Positions 501 to 63,177 of a stretch of DNA of 64,000 nucleotides are shown here, one piece after another; position 1 is the stretch's first letter; every line of letters starts with the position of its first letter. Origin of the DNA: an uncultured bacterium (lineage in GTDB: Bacteria; Desulfobacterota_D; UBA1144; Nemesobacterales; UBA2774). The notes under the pieces were generated by a model that was not told the origin of the DNA, ran no database searches, and saw only the letters and a list, made by a program, of their open reading frames with translations. The stretch spans positions 1,152,001 to 1,216,000 of the forward strand of contig CAWGRW010000009.1 of the NCBI GenBank assembly GCA_963825135.1, written 5' to 3'. The translations under genes and the position numbers were made by a program.

Positions 501-1651
<1,151 letters not shown>

Positions 1652-1684
1652 TCTGAGTGCACCTCCCCGCCGTTGATTACCTAC

Positions 1685-1733
1685 CGAGCGCTCGCTCGCT
1701 TTAAATTATAAAAACGTTCGAAGTTTATGTCAA
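1685..1733 (-). promoter_or_regulatory. Consensus sigma70 promoter (TTGACA-17-TATAAT) with a downstream palindromic operator candidate
   Basis: Plus-strand tgtcaa at 1728-1733 and attata at 1705-1710 with a 17-bp spacer; perfect palindrome CGAGCGCTCG at 1685-1694. Confidence 0.75.
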
Positions 1734-1739
1734 GGGGCT

Positions 1740-2363
1740 TTATGTGAGCGACTTTAAAATGAGCTCGGTCTGGATTTTGATGTAGTTTTTGAGGGAGTAG
1801 TTCTTTTGTACCGACCAGCGCCTGAACGCCCACATCTGCCCCTGCACCATTATATTTTCAGCCGCGAGTTTAGCGGTGCTTCTGTCTATCTTAAATACCT
1901 TTTCCTGTATCCCGTGGGTGATAATGTCTTCGAAGATCGCGACAAGCTCCTTCTCGGCCGAGAGTATGTAGCTCCTGTCCGTACGGTTGAGAGATTTCGT
2001 CTCCTGATACAGGAGGAGCGAATAATCCTGTATCTCGTCTATGATGGTGAAGTAGTCGCGGATGGCGTTCTTTAGGTTCTCCCTGGCGTCTTTCTCTCCG
2101 ACCAGGGAACTCTGCAGTTTTTCGCTTACGCTCTTGTGTATATGGTCGCAGACGAGGAACAGGATGTCCTCTTTCGTCCTGATGTAATCGTAGAGCGCTC
2201 CCATGCTCATGCCGAACTCTTTCGCTATCTCCCTGACCGTGGTCTTGTGGAACCCCTTTTTAACGAATAATTCGACGGCGGCGTTCACGAGCTCCTGCCT
2301 CCTTACGCTTATCAGGTCTTTGTCTTTTATATTGGACGCTATTCGGGTCTTTGAGTCGCTCAT
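1740..2363 (-). CDS. TetR/AcrR family transcriptional regulator
   Basis: HTH segment AAVELFVKKGFHKTTVREIAKEFGMSMGALYDYIRTKEDIL. Confidence 0.92.
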   Translation of the reverse strand: MSDSKTRIASNIKDKDLISVRRQELVNAAVELFVKKGFHKTTVREIAKEFGMSMGALYDYIRTKEDILFLVCDHIHKSVSEKLQSSLVGEKDARENLKNAIRDYFTIIDEIQDYSLLLYQETKSLNRTDRSYILSAEKELVAIFEDIITHGIQEKVFKIDRSTAKLAAENIMVQGQMWAFRRWSVQKNYSLKNYIKIQTELILKSLT

Positions 2364-2646
2364 AGTGTCTATCCCTTTTATAACCGTATGATCATACGCA
2401 GGAATTAATGAACCCCGAGAAAAACCAGTCGATGCGTTATTTTACTTTATTATGACCGGGAAATTTAGAGTCTCAATCTTGCTTGTGCTCGGAATGCGTA
2501 TGCGGAGCCCCATATCAAGCAGCCATCAAGGTGCAAGCGTTATCCGGGAAACATAATGATTGCCGCGAACGTTATAACCCCGGCGGGGTACTTATTTCAT
2601 CGGCCGCGCGATCACCCCCCGGGCAGCATTTTGTTCCGGGAACCCC

Positions 2647-3195
2647 TTATTTAAAGGGATTCAGCGTATTGAGGTCGGTCAGGGTTTCGATTAACTTAGG
2701 CTTTTCGACGAACAGCCTGTACTGCATCAATCTCAAGATAGACGACAGGTCTTTCCATTCCGACATGAACGATTCGTGTCCGGTCACGACCTCTTTGGCC
2801 TCACGGATACTCTCGTGGACGTAATCCGAAAATGTTTTTTCGGATATTTCATTTTCGAGCGATTCTATTATCTTGGGCAGCTCGTTCTTTTCGAGCCATA
2901 TCCCCCGGCACGATGGGCAGTAGTTTAATTCTATTCCCGTATGCCCGTACTCGATACTTATCGTCTTGGCGGCGCATGAAGGACATTTCAGATCCGTCTC
3001 TCTCGATTTGAATTTCTCCGGGTGCTTCCATATTTCGAAATCGAGCCAGTCGATGTTGGGGTCGGCGGCTTCCTCGGCCTTGCCCAGTTCCCCCGCGTCG
3101 AGCCATACGCCCTTGCACGACTCGCATTCATCGACGTCTATAGACCCCAGGACCTTTGTTTTAAGCTCTTTACCGCACTTCGGGCATTTTTTCAT
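2647..3195 (-). CDS. Double zinc-ribbon (zf-TFIIB-type) protein
   Basis: Two CPxC...CxxCxGxWL(D/E)xxEL units. Confidence 0.8.
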   Translation of the reverse strand: MKKCPKCGKELKTKVLGSIDVDECESCKGVWLDAGELGKAEEAADPNIDWLDFEIWKHPEKFKSRETDLKCPSCAAKTISIEYGHTGIELNYCPSCRGIWLEKNELPKIIESLENEISEKTFSDYVHESIREAKEVVTGHESFMSEWKDLSSILRLMQYRLFVEKPKLIETLTDLNTLNPFK

Positions 3196-3213
3196 AATAT
3201 CCGCTCCGGTTTA

Positions 3214-3582
3214 TTAGAAATTTTCGACGTCGACGACGCGGTCCTCCATGAAGTAGAGGAACACGCAGTCGTAATCGAGACCGTTATGGGTCTCGCAGCT
3301 ATAGGTCCATTTCTCATCGTACCTGCCCTTCTCCCCGGCCGTATCCTTCTGCCAGGGCTCTCCGTAAGACGCTACTATCTGCTGCTTCGTCATGCCCTTG
3401 AGGTCGGTCCCGTCCACGATCGCCTTCAGCATTTCATTCCCGCTCGATTTGCTCCCGCCCTGGGAGGTCACGACCGGGCTATCGGCGGAGAATGATACCG
3501 TGCTATAGAGTGAGATACATAAAAAGAACACGAAAACCGTCAAGGGTCCGTTTTTCCTGAAAAGTGAGCATGGGAATGACAT
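3214..3582 (-). CDS. Hypothetical exported protein (SmpA/OmlA-like GMTxxQ...GxP...W.Y pattern)
   Basis: Hydrophobic N-terminus; KGMTKQQIVASYGEP...EKWTY; stop abuts the next gene. Confidence 0.55.
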   Translation of the reverse strand: MSFPCSLFRKNGPLTVFVFFLCISLYSTVSFSADSPVVTSQGGSKSSGNEMLKAIVDGTDLKGMTKQQIVASYGEPWQKDTAGEKGRYDEKWTYSCETHNGLDYDCVFLYFMEDRVVDVENF

Positions 3583-58552: not shown

Positions 58553-58597
58553 GGATTCCTGATCCCGGAGTCGGAGGTTCGAGCCCTCCCGGGGACG
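58553..58597 (+). pseudogene. 3' half of a tRNA (Arg-CCT-like), probable att-site remnant
   Basis: gga-ttcctga-tcc anticodon arm, ggagg-ttcgagc-cctcc T arm and cggggac-g acceptor strand; no D arm or 5' acceptor strand upstream. Confidence 0.75.
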
Positions 58598-58977
58598 CAA
58601 TGGTCTAATGTAGTTACAGCGCCCCGGGAGTGAATGAACACAGGGCACTCGATAACATGACGCCTGAGGAGTATGTGAAAAAGCACGTAAAGACATCAGA
58701 AATCTCTAATTCACACGGTAGAGCTTTTGGGTGAGGCCCAAAATATGTAAAACCTGACTTAAATCATGGACCTCTTACAGGGGAGCAGGACGGAGAACTG
58801 GTCTTGACACGGGGCTCTTTTTTTGAGATAGTAGGACTAGAAAAGGTTCATGCGTAAAATGGATTTATTTTGTTGCGGGCACGAAAGTTAGCATAGTAGT
58901 TTTTGCGGAATCTTTAGTACTTGGCCCGTCCAAATGACTGTCGTTCCGATGACATTAACACAATAAAGGAGAATGCC

Positions 58978-59295
58978 ATGAAGTACATGATCAGCTGGTT
59001 CGAGCGCCCGCAAGGTTCGCCTGCGGAGTACGAGAACGCCCAGAAGCGCATACTCGAAGTGTTCACTCAATGGAAGGCGCCCGACAATTTCAATATCGAA
59101 TTGTTCGTAGTGCGGGTCGGTGAGTGGGGCGGGCATTTGTTGGTGGACTGCGACGATCCCCTGGCTATTCACAAATTTTGTTCGACCTGGCCTGCTTTCG
59201 AATTCCAGGCACGGCCCGTGATTCCCGTGGAGGACGCTGTCCGCGTCGAGCTCGAGGCTATGGCCTGGCGGGATAGTCTGAAGAAAGGCAAATAA
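58978..59295 (+). CDS. DUF3303 family protein
   Basis: MKYMISWFERPQGS..QKRIL..W..P pattern; AAGGAG RBS; TTGACA (58804), 17 bp, GATAGT promoter candidate upstream. Confidence 0.7.
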   Translation: MKYMISWFERPQGSPAEYENAQKRILEVFTQWKAPDNFNIELFVVRVGEWGGHLLVDCDDPLAIHKFCSTWPAFEFQARPVIPVEDAVRVELEAMAWRDSLKKGK

Positions 59296-59316
59296 AGCGG
59301 CTATTTCCTTCGGCTG

Positions 59317-59796
59317 TCAATATGGCGTTCCGTCTTTGTGGACGAACTTCCACTTACCCTCCGCTAGCGAAGCCGCGAGATCGTCGTCGGGGTAGTGTCC
59401 TTCATCTCCCGGCGTTCTGTCGCCCACTTCGAGGTACACGACGTCCTCAGCGGTTTCGTTGATCAGATGGTGACCGTTGCCTGTGCCCGCTTTGAAACCT
59501 GCGCACATTCCCGGAGAGAGCACCGTATGACCTTCGTCCGTGTGTAATGTCGGACTACCCCGCAAGACGTAAATGAACTCGTCTTGTTTGGTGTGATAGT
59601 GACGGATAGACGAGATTGCATTGGGCGCCAGGCGTGTGAGGTTGACGCCAAAGTTGGTAAGGCCGAACAAATCTCCTAGCGGCCGTTTCTCCCTGCCCGT
59701 CATCTGTGAAGCGAATGGCTCAGGGTAGTTTGACGGCTTGGTCCGTGCGGGCGCCTCAGCCGCATCGACGGCGACAGGCCTTGTTTCTTGTGACAT
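59317..59796 (-). CDS. Cupin domain protein
   Basis: GLTNFGVNL, SIRHYHTKQDEFIYVL, GFKAG..NGHHLIN and YPDDDL; CAGGAGG RBS. Confidence 0.9.
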   Translation of the reverse strand: MSQETRPVAVDAAEAPARTKPSNYPEPFASQMTGREKRPLGDLFGLTNFGVNLTRLAPNAISSIRHYHTKQDEFIYVLRGSPTLHTDEGHTVLSPGMCAGFKAGTGNGHHLINETAEDVVYLEVGDRTPGDEGHYPDDDLAASLAEGKWKFVHKDGTPY

Positions 59797-60022
59797 ATAT
59801 GCCTCCTGATCCTGCATGGTGAGTTTCGGCGTATCCGGTTCCATCTTCATTTTTTGAATCCGGGTTCATCACATATCTGACGTCTGTAATCGGCTAATCG
59901 ATGAACTCTCGAAGCAGACACGTAAATCTTAGCAATAATTATATCCTTTGGTCAAATCGGCCAGGCGGATCGATGCCGGTCGAGTTATTTCCTTTGCTGC
60001 TTTACGGTTACATCGCCTGGTG

Positions 60023-60071
60023 CAATGGCGGGCGATGGGGGACTCGAACCCCCGGCCTCAGGCTTCGGAGG
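60023..60071. repeat. 49-bp perfect direct repeat of the tRNA-Arg(CCG) 3' part (att site); partner at 62281-62329
   Basis: caatggcgggcgatgggggactcgaacccccggcctcaggcttcggagg is identical at both positions. Confidence 0.97.
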
Positions 60072-60187
60072 ACGCGAGCAAACTAGTAAAGCGTAATATA
60101 CATTCGTATTGAATCTCAGCAATCACAGAATGTTGAGTTGTTTTTCTACGCAACACCAATTTATACAGAATGGTGAATAACGGCACA

Positions 60188-60211
60188 ATATGGACACTTA
60201 TATGGACACTT
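60188..60211. repeat. Tandem 12-bp repeat ATATGGACACTT x2 (arm-type site candidate)
   Basis: Perfect tandem copies; related TGGAC boxes at 62193 and 62206 near the other end. Confidence 0.7.
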
Positions 60212-60270
60212 CCATTTTAATGCGTGGCCGAGCTTATGGTGTACTTACGCCAGATGTCCTTCACCACTCG

Positions 60271-60984
60271 TTATGCTGCGTTGTCGTTTGGTGTAACCAT
60301 GCAAAGAAACGCAACCCTTTTGTAAAAGGCCAAAACCCAAGCACTCATTGTATCGTGGCCTTGAACCCGTTGAAACCAATATGCAAAGACGTTTTCACCG
60401 AACACATTCGGTGAATTTCGTGTCACCTTATCGAAGATGTCAAGGACCCGCACCGTGGCATCGGAGTCGATGTTTGTAAGGCCCGCCGCAGAATAAGCGG
60501 TGACGTGAAAGTATTCGGGAATACGTTTGCCAAATTCGTGGAAATACAAACCGGTTGTGATTCTTGCGGCCACACGATCGAGACGGGAGAGATCGACATC
60601 ATATCCAGGTGCAGTTCCGAGGTAGATTCCACCAGCAGATAAGAGATCAAGATTACCCATGCTATTGAAGAATGCTTGCTGGAATCCCTTCTTCGATGGT
60701 TTTTGTAGGGATCGGTAGATCGAAGGCAGAATTGCTTTGACGGCGGGATGATCACCTGTATCGTGGCGCATGGAAATCACGAGCCGGAAGTATTCGTCGT
60801 CTCTGGATGCACCTTCGTTGCAAGATCGGCAACTGGGAACAGTGATCAGATTCGACGGTCTCGGTTTCGGAAAGAGAGTTTTCGGCGGAATGTGATCGTC
60901 GGTCAACGCTTCCGCACTACCGCAATAAACGCAAAAATAATTCGTAACATTGGGTCCGTCATATGTGTTGACTACCATTTTCAT
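60271..60984 (-). CDS. HNH endonuclease with a zinc finger and C-terminal extension
   Basis: CVYC..TDDHIPPK..LITVPSCRSCN..SRDDEYF. Confidence 0.85.
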   Translation of the reverse strand: MKMVVNTYDGPNVTNYFCVYCGSAEALTDDHIPPKTLFPKPRPSNLITVPSCRSCNEGASRDDEYFRLVISMRHDTGDHPAVKAILPSIYRSLQKPSKKGFQQAFFNSMGNLDLLSAGGIYLGTAPGYDVDLSRLDRVAARITTGLYFHEFGKRIPEYFHVTAYSAAGLTNIDSDATVRVLDIFDKVTRNSPNVFGENVFAYWFQRVQGHDTMSAWVLAFYKRVAFLCMVTPNDNAA

Positions 60985-61912
60985 ACTCTTGATCTATCTC
61001 TCCTAATAGTTCTAAAATATATGAATGTTTGTTAGATAAAAAGCTTGCGAAAATATAAGCATCTTTTTCAGACAAGGTACTCTTCTCGCCGTCTTCAAAG
61101 AAGGATTCAAGCTTTCTAATTGGATAGAGAACGTCGTCTATACCGTGGATAAATACATCGTTTGCGGGATATTCTCCTCTTTCTTTGAGCTTTTCTATTA
61201 GCTTGTTGTAACGATCATGAATAAGCTTCAAGCAAATAGCCCCAATCTTCCTATTTGAAGTTGTAAGAATGCCATCAAATACCTTTTCAAATTCGTAACT
61301 CATACCATGAGGGAGCAAGTTGACCAATTTTTCCATGCGAAACTTCTCCTTGTGTGCTTTCTCTTCCGCTTCCAATCTGCCCGTTAACGTGAACAGAATC
61401 GAGGAAATATATTTTCTTTGCTCGGCTACCCATCTAGGAATGTTGATGTCCCTATGCTCGGAGGTGCCATCGATGTAAAAAGAAAAGATACTAAAGCCGG
61501 CCGGACCCAGCGACGCTCTTGAGATATAATGATAGGAGATAGGCTTCGATTTTGTCTTGGCCCGTTTTGTGGGATGTCCAACAGCATCGTTCCGTATCCT
61601 ACGAATCTCTAATAGTATTGGGTAGTTGTTAATCTTCTCTGAAATTGCAAGCGATTCGCAAAGATTGTCAACTGCATCTTGCTGGACATACATTGCTTGG
61701 AGAAGCCCATAGACCGTAAGGTAGTAAACTGCCGTGCTATCTCCAAACTCCTTTGCCTCGAAAGCGGTAATCGCTTCTTCCGTGTCTCCGATCACATCAA
61801 GCGAACTGCAAAGTTGAGAAAACAACGGTTTGTTCTGTCGTAACTCATAATGCATTCGCGGATCGTTTATATGCTCGCGAATTTGTTTTATCCGGTTTTG
61901 AACTGGATTCAC
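60959..61912 (-). CDS. Hypothetical protein with a HEPN-like RNxxxxH motif (probable GTG start at 61912; ORF extends to 62011)
   Basis: Sequence looks largely helical; IRRIRNDAVGHP at 61594-61574; stop overlaps the HNH start. Confidence 0.65.
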   Translation of the reverse strand: MNPVQNRIKQIREHINDPRMHYELRQNKPLFSQLCSSLDVIGDTEEAITAFEAKEFGDSTAVYYLTVYGLLQAMYVQQDAVDNLCESLAISEKINNYPILLEIRRIRNDAVGHPTKRAKTKSKPISYHYISRASLGPAGFSIFSFYIDGTSEHRDINIPRWVAEQRKYISSILFTLTGRLEAEEKAHKEKFRMEKLVNLLPHGMSYEFEKVFDGILTTSNRKIGAICLKLIHDRYNKLIEKLKERGEYPANDVFIHGIDDVLYPIRKLESFFEDGEKSTLSEKDAYIFASFLSNKHSYILELLGEIDQEYENGSQHI

Positions 61913-62283
61913 GTTTTCAGCCCTATCTTTGTGAGAGACGTTAAATATTTCTAAGCGCTTTACTTGCTGATTATACGAAATATTTCCATCTAACCAGATT
62001 AAGAATAACAAAATTTGTAGATTTTATCTAACGTCTGTTATCTCTTTATAAGCTTTTCATGATAAGCCTGTGATAGTAGCGGACATTCCATATGGATGTA
62101 TTGATAGATGACATGGATGGTACGCGCTCAGGCGGTTCTATAAGCCGTCATCATCAATAGTGTGTATCGATAGATATACGACATGTGAATTGTGGACGCC
62201 CTGCGTGGACACTAGTATTAATATCACCACCCTCGTGTAAACAAAATACTCGATGTAATTAACTCTAAGCATTGAAAAAACAA

Positions 62284-62359
62284 TGGCGGGCGATGGGGGA
62301 CTCGAACCCCCGGCCTCAGGCTTCGGAGGCCTGCGCTCTATCCACTGAGCTAATCGCCC
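62284..62359 (-). tRNA. tRNA-Arg(CCG), CCA encoded
   Basis: GGGCGAT/ATCGCCC acceptor stem, CAGGC-CTCCGAA-GCCTG anticodon arm and GGGGG-TTCGAGT-CCCCC T arm; 76 nt. Confidence 0.97.
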
Positions 62360-63152
62360 GGTTTTGAGATTCCAAGCTCCTTCATCACTACCTGCATATC
62401 TTCCCAGAGCGGCTTCTTGAAATTCGGGTTCCTGAGAAGGGCCGCAGGATGATAAGTTACCATAAGTTTCGCCCTTCCGTATTGATGGAACTTCCCCCGG
62501 AGGCTCCCGAGGCTCTGCTTCGTTTTAAGTATGGACTGCGCGGCCGTGCTCCCTAGGCACACTACGACCCCGGGCTCTATCGACCTTATCTGCTTGAATA
62601 GGAACTGCTCGCAGGTCGCCATCTCGTCGGGCTCTGGAGTCCTGTTCTCGGGCGGGCGGCACTTCACCACGTTGCATATATATACGTCCTCTCTCTTTAG
62701 CCCCATCGCCTCTATTATCTTGGTGAGGAGCTGTCCCGACCTCCCCACGAACGGCGTCCCTGCAGGTCCTCGTCCCTCCCCGGCCCTTCCCCCACGAATA
62801 CGAGCCTCGCCTTCGGGTTCCCTTCCCCGAACACCAGATTCGTCCTCCCCTCGTGGAGCTTGCACCGGGTGCAGTCCCCTATCTCCGCCCTTATCTCTTC
62901 GAGCGTCATCTTTTTAGCGGAGGCGTCGAATATGCCGATCTGCTCTTCTATTCTTATAACGTCGTCCTTTTTTTCGGGTGATGTCTGAGCTTTTGGTTGC
63001 GTCCTCACGGGTTCTTTCCCGGGCGCCTTCGGGATGGTCTCTTCCTTGGCCTTTTTTTCCACCGGCGCCCTCGCGACTCCCATGGATTTCTCAAATTCGA
63101 GACGCCTCTTCAAGTCCTCGATGATCCCTTTCAGCTCTGATTCACGGCTCAT
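62350..63152 (-). CDS. Family 4 uracil-DNA glycosylase (Fe-S type), frameshifted near 62757
   Basis: CTRCKL, VFGEG and FVGEGPG in the first ORF; PFVGRSG, NVVKCRPPENR and TYHPAALLR in the second. Confidence 0.9.
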
Positions 63153-63177
63153 ATCAGAATCCTTCTTTCTCTAACTT

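Follow-up and report, generated by a model that had tools for sequence, protein, structure and literature searches.

A putative HEPN-like gene and an HNH nuclease gene that share an integrase-less tRNA-Arg cassette appear to be separate modules

Introduction

As described in an excerpt of Anantharaman et al. 2013 (PMC3710099), HEPN proteins carry an Rx4-6H motif where the third helix ends or the following loop begins, the residue after the arginine is usually N, D or H, and helix 2 holds a conserved acidic residue. The same excerpt reports a beta-hairpin directly after the motif in the HEPN family Csx1 and describes HEPN genes as common in defence islands generally. In lactococcal AbiU, according to an excerpt of PMC13064643, a nuclease-like protein, AbiUi, is accompanied by a HEPN protein, AbiUii, that lowers activity. 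Here we analyse two overlapping genes, which we call g1 and g2, that fill a small island at a tRNA-Arg gene of an uncultured bacterium (GTDB lineage Desulfobacterota_D; UBA1144; Nemesobacterales; UBA2774). The window is a stretch of 64,000 nucleotides from this organism (assembly GCA_963825135.1, contig CAWGRW010000009.1, positions 1,152,001 to 1,216,000 of the forward strand), and positions given below are those of the window unless another sequence is named.

The island itself also has described counterparts. Cis-mobilizable elements (CIMEs) are pieces of DNA flanked by attachment (att) sites that lack a recombinase of their own, and they accrete in tandem at tRNA att sites. An earlier note on the window had taken g1 and g2 for a coupled RNase plus DNase system that fits no named one. 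Our analysis makes us lean towards a different reading, in which the two genes are independent single-gene nuclease modules, with a probable role in defence or abortive infection, that came to lie in one integrase-less cassette of a tRNA-Arg hotspot.

Results

Two genes are the sole cargo of a tRNA-Arg island

The integration target is a tRNA-Arg gene with anticodon CCG (62284..62359, minus strand), called by ARAGORN and matched by the Rfam tRNA model with 73.3 bits. A repeat of 49 nt, made up of 46 nt from the tRNA 3' part and 3 further nt, stands at 62281..62329, and BLAST of this repeat reveals a 100% identical direct copy at 60023..60071, which marks the far end of the island. The island restores the 3' part of the tRNA, which is why the gene remains intact. 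At the distal copy Rfam detects merely an 18-nt tmRNA/tRNA-like scrap, and it has no match within the island interior. This interior of 2,209 bp (60072..62280) was delimited by its composition, by the list of open reading frames (ORFs) and by a search of 30 relatives; its GC content is 0.38-0.50, against 0.52-0.62 in the flanks.

Only g1 (60959..61912, minus strand, 317 aa) and g2 (60271..60984, minus strand, 237 aa) are encoded between the repeats, and the ORF list of the interior contains neither a recombinase or integrase gene nor an antitoxin-like small gene. The stop codon of g1 (TGA, 60961-60959) falls within g2, and the overlap amounts to 26 nt if g2 starts at the ATG at 60984 and to 20 nt if it starts at the ATG at 60978. 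A scan for promoters and terminators gave counts not above those of shuffled sequences. The noncoding stretch between g2 and the distal att copy (~60155-60260) is a small dispersed repeat with matches at six places in three sister genomes (54-72 nt, 82-89% identity) and on a contig of the public sequencing run X3.

The g1 and g2 families hardly ever occur together

We gathered 80 g1 loci from contigs sampled at one genome per species, and g1 was recovered in 79 of them. These loci range over Anaerolineae, Planctomycetota, Acidobacteriota, Shewanella, Marinobacter, Kordia and two methanogen-related archaea. Searches with tblastn and with a hidden Markov model (HMM) of the g2 family retrieved no g2 relative in any of the 79, and the downstream sequence extends for at least 750 nt in 72 of the 80. 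The reciprocal sample consisted of 80 g2 loci from metagenomes, eight of them at 72-82% identity to g2, and it contains no g1 relative (0/80), with at least 950 nt of upstream sequence in 49 loci. In three complete genomes that carry g1, g2 is absent genome-wide. No other conserved partner emerged either: no cluster of neighbouring ORFs recurs in more than 4 of the 79 g1 loci or in more than 6 of the 80 g2 loci. Given the two null counts and the three genomes with g1 and without g2, we conclude that g1 and g2 do not form a conserved system. The earlier note was right about the anatomy, namely a pair with a 20-26 nt overlap that makes up the whole cargo of a tRNA island. It had also held that genes never found together elsewhere would speak against a coupled RNase plus DNase system, and the coupling does not survive the comparison of these loci.

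The sole other joint occurrence that we found is on plasmid pMAQU01 of Marinobacter nauticus VT8, where distant members of the two families (33% and 23% identity) share a strand and are separated by 1.7 kb that includes two hypothetical genes. The full row (NC_008738.1:9050-15963, locus L210) reads SIR2-family gene, g2-like gene, two hypothetical genes, g1-like gene, two hypothetical genes and PAPS-reductase-family gene, with transposases on both sides, and resembles either a defence island or an array of cassettes.

g1 belongs to a large family with a conserved HEPN-type motif

The g1 reading frame covers 60959..62011 on the minus strand and encodes 350 aa from a TTG or 317 aa from the GTG at 61912. 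The stored gene call (P0001, 298 aa) begins downstream of R12 and N16, both conserved in at least 90% of the family and encoded in the stretch 61855-61912; by sequence, translation probably starts at one of these two codons, GTG (61912) or TTG (62011). A word-indexed search gathered the family into 280 clusters, and an exhaustive profile search at E≤1e-3 returned 2628 representatives, almost all with a length of about 310 aa. The nearest relatives of g1 (P0002, P0004 and P0007) have 75-80% identity to it. The segment IRRIRNDAVGHP (residues 102-113 of the 317-aa form) contains the R107-N108-x4-H113 motif. In an alignment of 114 family members, R107, H113 and P114 are among only 8 invariant columns, and their neighbours R104, N108, G112 and T115 are conserved in at least 90% of the sequences. 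Such conservation sets the motif well apart from a chance Rx5H.

The structural model of g1 (predicted local distance difference test, pLDDT, 88.6) has long helices at 28-52, 60-87, 98-111 and 158-190, a three-stranded beta insert at 127-157 and a C-terminal four-helix bundle at 184-316. The motif stands at the end of helix 98-111, with H113 in the loop that follows, and D79, conserved in at least 90% of the family, lies in helix 60-87. Compared with the published HEPN description, g1 thus shows the motif spacing, the invariant arginine and histidine and the polar residue after the arginine; the motif position and the acidic residue of helix 2 agree as well, on secondary structure alone, and the beta insert recalls the beta-hairpin that follows the motif in Csx1. 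Four long helices are predicted, and fold searches for the up-down bundle of two alpha-hairpins seen in solved HEPN domains gave lists dominated by the C-terminal bundle at 184-316.

Database comparisons placed g1 in no named family. Pfam and PADLOC gave no match above threshold, a sequence search of the PDB returned nothing, and the two matches from PHROGs are weak (E 0.0035 and 0.015) and point to families without an assigned function. The ESM Atlas returned unnamed clusters alone, with nothing above 0.77 for residues 1-185. Below threshold, Pfam HEPN models match 6 of the 114 aligned members, HEPN_AbiU2 in five and HEPN-like_int in one (E 7.4e-4); the HEPN-like_int match and the three AbiU2 matches that we inspected (E up to 0.03) all align at the motif region. 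The best score of the g1 family against HEPN_AbiU2 (PF18734) is 14.9 bits, against a cut-off of 26.8. Nineteen AbiU2 proteins that we collected mostly share the Rx5H spacing of g1 and have A or G ahead of the histidine (e.g. RNEAFGH, RNKIFGH). A protein search yielded no more than three AbiU2 relatives. Comparison by hhalign of the g1 family with one AbiU2 protein, with three, or with the AbiU2 protein of g2 locus L083 gave no significant match. AbiU2 occurs in 1 of 120 genomes of the window's phylum, and HEPN-like_int (PF18867) has no match in 400 gammaproteobacterial genomes.

We thus found no significant support for membership of g1 in any named HEPN family. Still, its motif, conservation and predicted helices make it likely that g1 is HEPN-like, and a metal-independent RNase is our working model for it. 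Its closest described counterparts would be the HEPN abortive infection (Abi) proteins AbiU2/AbiUii, AbiD/F, AbiJ and AbiV. With these, g1 shares the conserved R-[N]-x4-H motif that closes the third core helix, the polar residue after the arginine and the acidic residue in helix 2, as well as a single-gene organisation, neighbourhoods of the restriction-modification, toxin-antitoxin and defence type, and a wide, patchy occurrence among bacteria and archaea. The helical stretch ahead of the motif is about 105 residues long, as it is in the AbiU2 profile. The g1 family differs from the Abi proteins in the beta insert after the motif, in the extra C-terminal four-helix bundle and in its own invariant blocks (GHPTK, SSLDVIxDT and QQDA), and it has no significant profile match to the Pfam HEPN families, AbiU2 included.

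Two long members of the family, P0261 (542 aa) and P0244 (574 aa), are extended at the C-terminus by about 230-260 aa. A second motif, RNYLIH (Rx4H), occurs in the extended part of P0261, and this protein may be a tandem HEPN form.

g2 is a predicted HNH nuclease with a C-terminal domain of its own

The g2 protein has an N-terminal HNH core with a Cys4 zinc ribbon (residues ~15-70) followed by an alpha/beta C-terminal domain of about 165 aa. Its motifs are C18xxC21, D30-H31 and C52xxC55-N56, after which come some 180 residues. Among 32 aligned sequences C21, D30, H31, C55, N56 and the block D62-D63-E64-Y65 are invariant, and C18, C52 and N45 are conserved in at least 90%. Pfam HNH matches residues 18-58 with E 3.7e-4 and 21.0 bits, against a cut-off of 21.4, and the profile of the g2 family retrieves HNH nuclease domains from the PDB with E 0.006. 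The AlphaFold model (pLDDT 91.0; predicted template modelling score, pTM, 0.87) shows the expected beta-beta-alpha arrangement, with strands at 27-32 and 47-52 and a helix at 53-71. By motif and model alike, g2 classes as a member of the HNH (beta-beta-alpha-Me) nuclease superfamily. The C-terminal domain is confidently modelled and had no structural match in the fold comparison. The family comprises 291 clusters and 375 metagenome loci, and precomputed PF14279 or PF01844 assignments exist for 9 of the 120 g2 relatives listed.

Residues 14-60 of g2 match two PADLOC models (PADLOC-DB 2.0.0 of 2023), PDC-M01B with E 4.8e-7 and PtuB with E 6.6e-4. These matches span about 45 of 216-366 model positions, which is the HNH core alone, and PHROGs models match the same ~45-residue core; NCBIfam has no match for g1 or g2. 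The core that g2 shares with Septu PtuB and PDC-M01B is a Cys4 zinc-ribbon HNH domain with the D-H and N residues. In g2 the HNH domain is N-terminal instead of central, the similarity stops at the limits of the core, and the island has no gene for a PtuA-like ATPase partner. The partial model match and the missing ATPase gene speak against classing g2 as a Septu PtuB or PDC-M01B.

Most of what the earlier note had read in the two proteins is upheld by these comparisons: the R-N-x4-H pattern of g1 and the CxxC...DH...CxxCN pattern of g2 are conserved features of their families, g2 has the HNH identity proposed for it, and the pair corresponds to no named system in PADLOC or NCBIfam. Its assignment of g1 to HEPN fared less evenly, with the conserved motif found at the expected position and the HEPN fold confirmed by none of the fold or profile comparisons.

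Both families have variable neighbourhoods that include defence genes

We scanned 144 neighbour ORFs of the g1 loci and counted as defence or mobile genetic element (MGE) types restriction-modification, toxin-antitoxin, TIR/SEFIR, AAA_21, DUF499, nuclease, transposase and integrase genes. An immediate neighbour is of one of these types in 25 of the 79 loci, or in 32 with the ambiguous cases. For g2, 104 of 117 neighbour ORFs were scanned, leaving out the near-duplicate loci L090, L096, L097, L120, L127, L134 and L158 and the upstream neighbour in L100; 45 adjacent same-strand ORFs, mostly unmatched or unscanned before, were rescanned at a looser threshold. The g2 neighbours include PemK, Fic, an Eco57I-type methylase, Mrr_cat and a Cap15 cyclic-dinucleotide receptor domain, along with HNH genes, integrases, transposases and HEPN proteins. 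The toxin-antitoxin-type neighbours of the two families taken together are TumE, ParD-like, Gp49, Fic and PemK. Domain scans of g1 and g2 detected no secretion or delivery domains.

Among 2.9 million viral contigs we found no g1 relative and a single g2 relative, a near absence that fits host rather than phage genes. A tRNA gene lies within the retrieved flank of 4 of 60 scanned g1 loci and of 4 of 36 scanned g2 loci, in the latter always 2.3-2.7 kb away, which rules out a general association of the two families with tRNA genes. A full-text literature search turned up no paper that names either family, a weak negative for families that have no searchable name.

The tRNA-Arg gene is a hotspot for small att-flanked cassettes

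A 4.3-kb query around the island was searched against 30 related genomes. The tRNA and its neighbour, a uracil-DNA-glycosylase (UDG) gene, are kept in the genus, with 85-96% identity in 6 of 9 sister species, and the part of the query that bears g1 and g2 (~1370-3350) has no match in any of the 30. We retrieved six loci (L171-L176) and mapped repeats of the tRNA 3' part in them. Five have one to three extra copies, 32-49 nt long, 93-100% identical and 0.65-3.9 kb apart: three in L171, a second contig of the same assembly (G000:C7:1-11045; spacings of ~0.65, 0.9 and 3.9 kb), two each in L172 and L174, and one each in L173 and L175. In L176 an att copy lies beside a cupin gene and the contig ends before the tRNA. 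The cargo varies from locus to locus and includes a NotI-like endonuclease accompanied by a D12 methylase, a gene resembling pentameric ligand-gated ion channels (pLGIC-like) and one of the 3-dmu-9_3-mt family. No unit of the examined loci has an integrase between its att copies, and the genome's 8 tyrosine-recombinase matches all lie far from the island, elsewhere on the contig. Since copies of the tRNA 3' part recur with differing, integrase-less cargo, this tRNA-Arg gene is a hotspot for small att-flanked cassettes.

Flanked on both sides by direct repeats of the tRNA 3' part, free of any recombinase gene and without a counterpart in relatives, the island has the make-up of a CIME. Like CIMEs and tycheposon-type tRNA islands, the units at this site are att-flanked and recombinase-less, are stacked behind one tRNA and differ in cargo between sister species. 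They differ from both in their very small size, 0.65-3.9 kb with one to four genes, and in that no integrase-bearing parent element stands at this tRNA in the 6 loci examined.

In 6 of 7 arrays (the window, L171-L173, L175 and L176), the sequence some 40-110 nt downstream of an att copy contains a short motif, GTGTCCA (often TAGTGTCCAAA); this holds for seven att copies, and the motif's orientation never changes. In the window it is found at 62206..62212 on the minus strand, 69 nt inside the tRNA-proximal end of the island, and near the distal end twice more, as a tandem pair in the same orientation (60203-60209 and 60191-60197). These copies are possible arm-type recombinase sites or regulator sites.

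Other cassettes at the hotspot deserve mention. In sister genome G004, a 2.9-kb att-flanked cassette (L174:6739-9475) encodes a NotI-like restriction endonuclease (PF12183, E 2.9e-56) and a D12-class adenine methylase, together with a 297-aa protein that has no Pfam match; judged from its gene content, it is a complete restriction-modification system in the form of an integrase-less tRNA cassette. The pLGIC-like gene (Neur_chan_LBD plus Neur_chan_memb) forms an att-flanked cassette of its own in two sister species (L174:4707-5813 and L172:6641-7168). The assembly also holds a second copy of the tRNA-Arg/UDG flank, on the 11-kb contig of L171 (G000:C7:3658-4567, 97% identical to window 62284-63155) and with other cassettes behind it, which represents either a genuine duplication or a strain variant that was binned together with this genome.

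On the far side of the island, the cupin and DUF3303 genes (58921-59850) stand in a different order in the relative G002 and on different contigs or in different places in G007; the region past the distal att copy is therefore also variable. In the 500-bp gap to the left of the DUF3303 gene, an inverted repeat at 58577-58639 includes a tRNA T-arm-like string, GTTCGAGCCC, where neither ARAGORN nor Rfam makes a call. An earlier insertion, at another tRNA fragment, may have left it as a scar.

Discussion

The reading that we hold to be the better bet is that of two stand-alone nuclease genes, each probably serving defence or abortive infection, in one integrase-less cassette of the tRNA-Arg hotspot. 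The mini-island, 2.2 kb long, would have entered through site-specific recombination, by a recombinase that acted in trans or was later lost, and g1 and g2, both horizontally mobile, would have been packed and co-transcribed in it by chance. In this scheme g1 is most likely a stand-alone, metal-independent RNase of the HEPN type and the abortive-infection kind, with R107 and H113 as the putative catalytic pair, helped by N108 and by D79 in helix 2. It would probably be inactive until infection, and the beta insert and C-terminal helical bundle may form its regulatory or sensing part. The g2 protein would be a stand-alone HNH DNase in which H31 acts as general base, N56 is a metal ligand and the Cys4 zinc ribbon holds the core, with the C-terminal domain gating or targeting the nuclease. 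Each gene would work without the other, and the 26-nt overlap would reflect compaction and translational coupling, not an obligate partnership.

Several observations weigh against this reading or parts of it. The overlap is what a true operonic pair would show as well. On the side of g1, Foldseek gave no match at E≤1e-3 in the PDB or BFVD, and no fold search returned a HEPN structure, the lists being filled by the C-terminal bundle with residues 1-180 barely sampled. An hhalign comparison of the g1 family with an alignment of 20 AbiU2 sequences covered only 19-20 columns at the motif, with a probability of 0.6-0.8%, and its score of 18.0 compares with 15.8 for an unrelated control and 12.4 for a reversed control. 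The g1 neighbours other than those of the defence and MGE types are housekeeping genes, of which there are many, or have no Pfam match, and the richness of both families in defence and MGE neighbours, taken from plain counts, is only suggestive. No excision junction was seen in four public runs, which consist of contigs and of which three lack cover over g1/g2: run X1 has three 100%-identical fragments of the island, runs X2, X3 and X5 have contigs over the cupin and tRNA/UDG flanks and none over g1/g2, no run contains more than 0.15 of the words, and no RNA run was listed among those that contain them. Finally, g2 relatives directly adjoin HEPN proteins of four families in 6 of the 80 loci, which amount to 4 distinct contexts.

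This last point, together with the overlap in the window, is the starting point for a modular system of the AbiU type, in which a g2-family HNH DNase would work with, or be tuned by, an adjoining and interchangeable HEPN RNase such as g1. The adjoining genes are bona fide HEPN proteins of four Pfam families: HEPN_AbiU2 84 nt downstream of the g2 relative in L083 and L084 (40.7 bits, above the Pfam cut-off), HEPN PF05168 57 nt upstream in L143, ApeA_NTD1 plus HEPN_Apea with a 4-nt overlap in L154 and L158, and DUF4145 99 nt upstream in L116. The spacing of the g1 motif is that of AbiU2, and on pMAQU01 the distant g1 and g2 members share a strand at a distance of 1.7 kb. As in Lactococcus AbiU, with its nuclease-like AbiUi and HEPN AbiUii, a nuclease gene adjoins a HEPN or HEPN-like gene, and the g2 relative of L083 (74% identity) is followed by a true AbiU2-family gene. 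AbiUi is described as FokI-like in the excerpt of PMC13064643 whereas g2 is an HNH protein, the HEPN-like gene comes first here, and the pairing is conserved in neither family. Moreover, 74 of the 80 g2 loci have no recognised HEPN neighbour, the HEPN gene lies upstream or downstream depending on the locus, and the four contexts do not differ significantly from the g1 control, with one HEPN-type neighbour (an ApeA N-domain, L027) in 79 loci. Conversely, a nuclease-type neighbour is found in just about 6 of the 79 g1 loci, and HEPN genes are in any case widespread in defence islands (PMC3710099). We give such a system a small but real chance. The same small chance covers, as one joint proposal, its widest form: a partner-swapping dual-nuclease defence with AbiU-like logic across phyla, in which a g2-family DNase would combine with any adjoining HEPN RNase (g1, AbiU2, ApeA, HEPN-T or DUF4145) and one- or two-gene cassettes would be shuffled by a tRNA-anchored site with the recombinase in trans.

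The cassette could instead be selfish, with one or both nucleases acting as post-segregational or inter-bacterial toxins and having no part in phage defence. Both domains are typical of toxins (for HEPN, see the excerpt of PMC3710099), the neighbourhoods are rich in the toxin-antitoxin genes named above, and the cassette is tiny and mobile. We nevertheless regard addiction or toxin cargo as unlikely: the island has no candidate antitoxin, neither family has a conserved small partner, delivery domains were not detected, and proteins of 237-317 aa with regulatory-looking extra domains are a better fit to self-controlled effectors of the Abi type. HNH nucleases are also known to drive the homing of some mobile elements. 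In an island that has no integrase, g2 might then be the mobility enzyme, a homing-type endonuclease that cuts the tRNA-Arg site, with g1 as cargo or helper. A perfect 49-nt duplication of the tRNA 3' part is, however, the attL/attR signature of a tyrosine integrase rather than of homing, the same repeats occur without g2 in other cassettes at the hotspot, and tRNA genes are as rare and as distant in the flanks of g2 loci as reported above, all of which makes homing very improbable.

If the two genes are independent modules, as we favour, g1 and g2 represent new families of effector types that are already known and do not make up a new kind of system, and recognising that their pairing is not conserved averts the wrong annotation of a new two-gene system. 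Both are sizeable families for which Pfam, NCBIfam and PADLOC have no model. Should they prove to be true single-gene defence nucleases, the catalogued anti-phage effectors would gain two more families, and g2's C-terminal domain may be a new sensor or regulatory fold. For the genus, the tRNA-Arg hotspot is a further case of recombinase-less mini-cassettes that shuffle defence genes.

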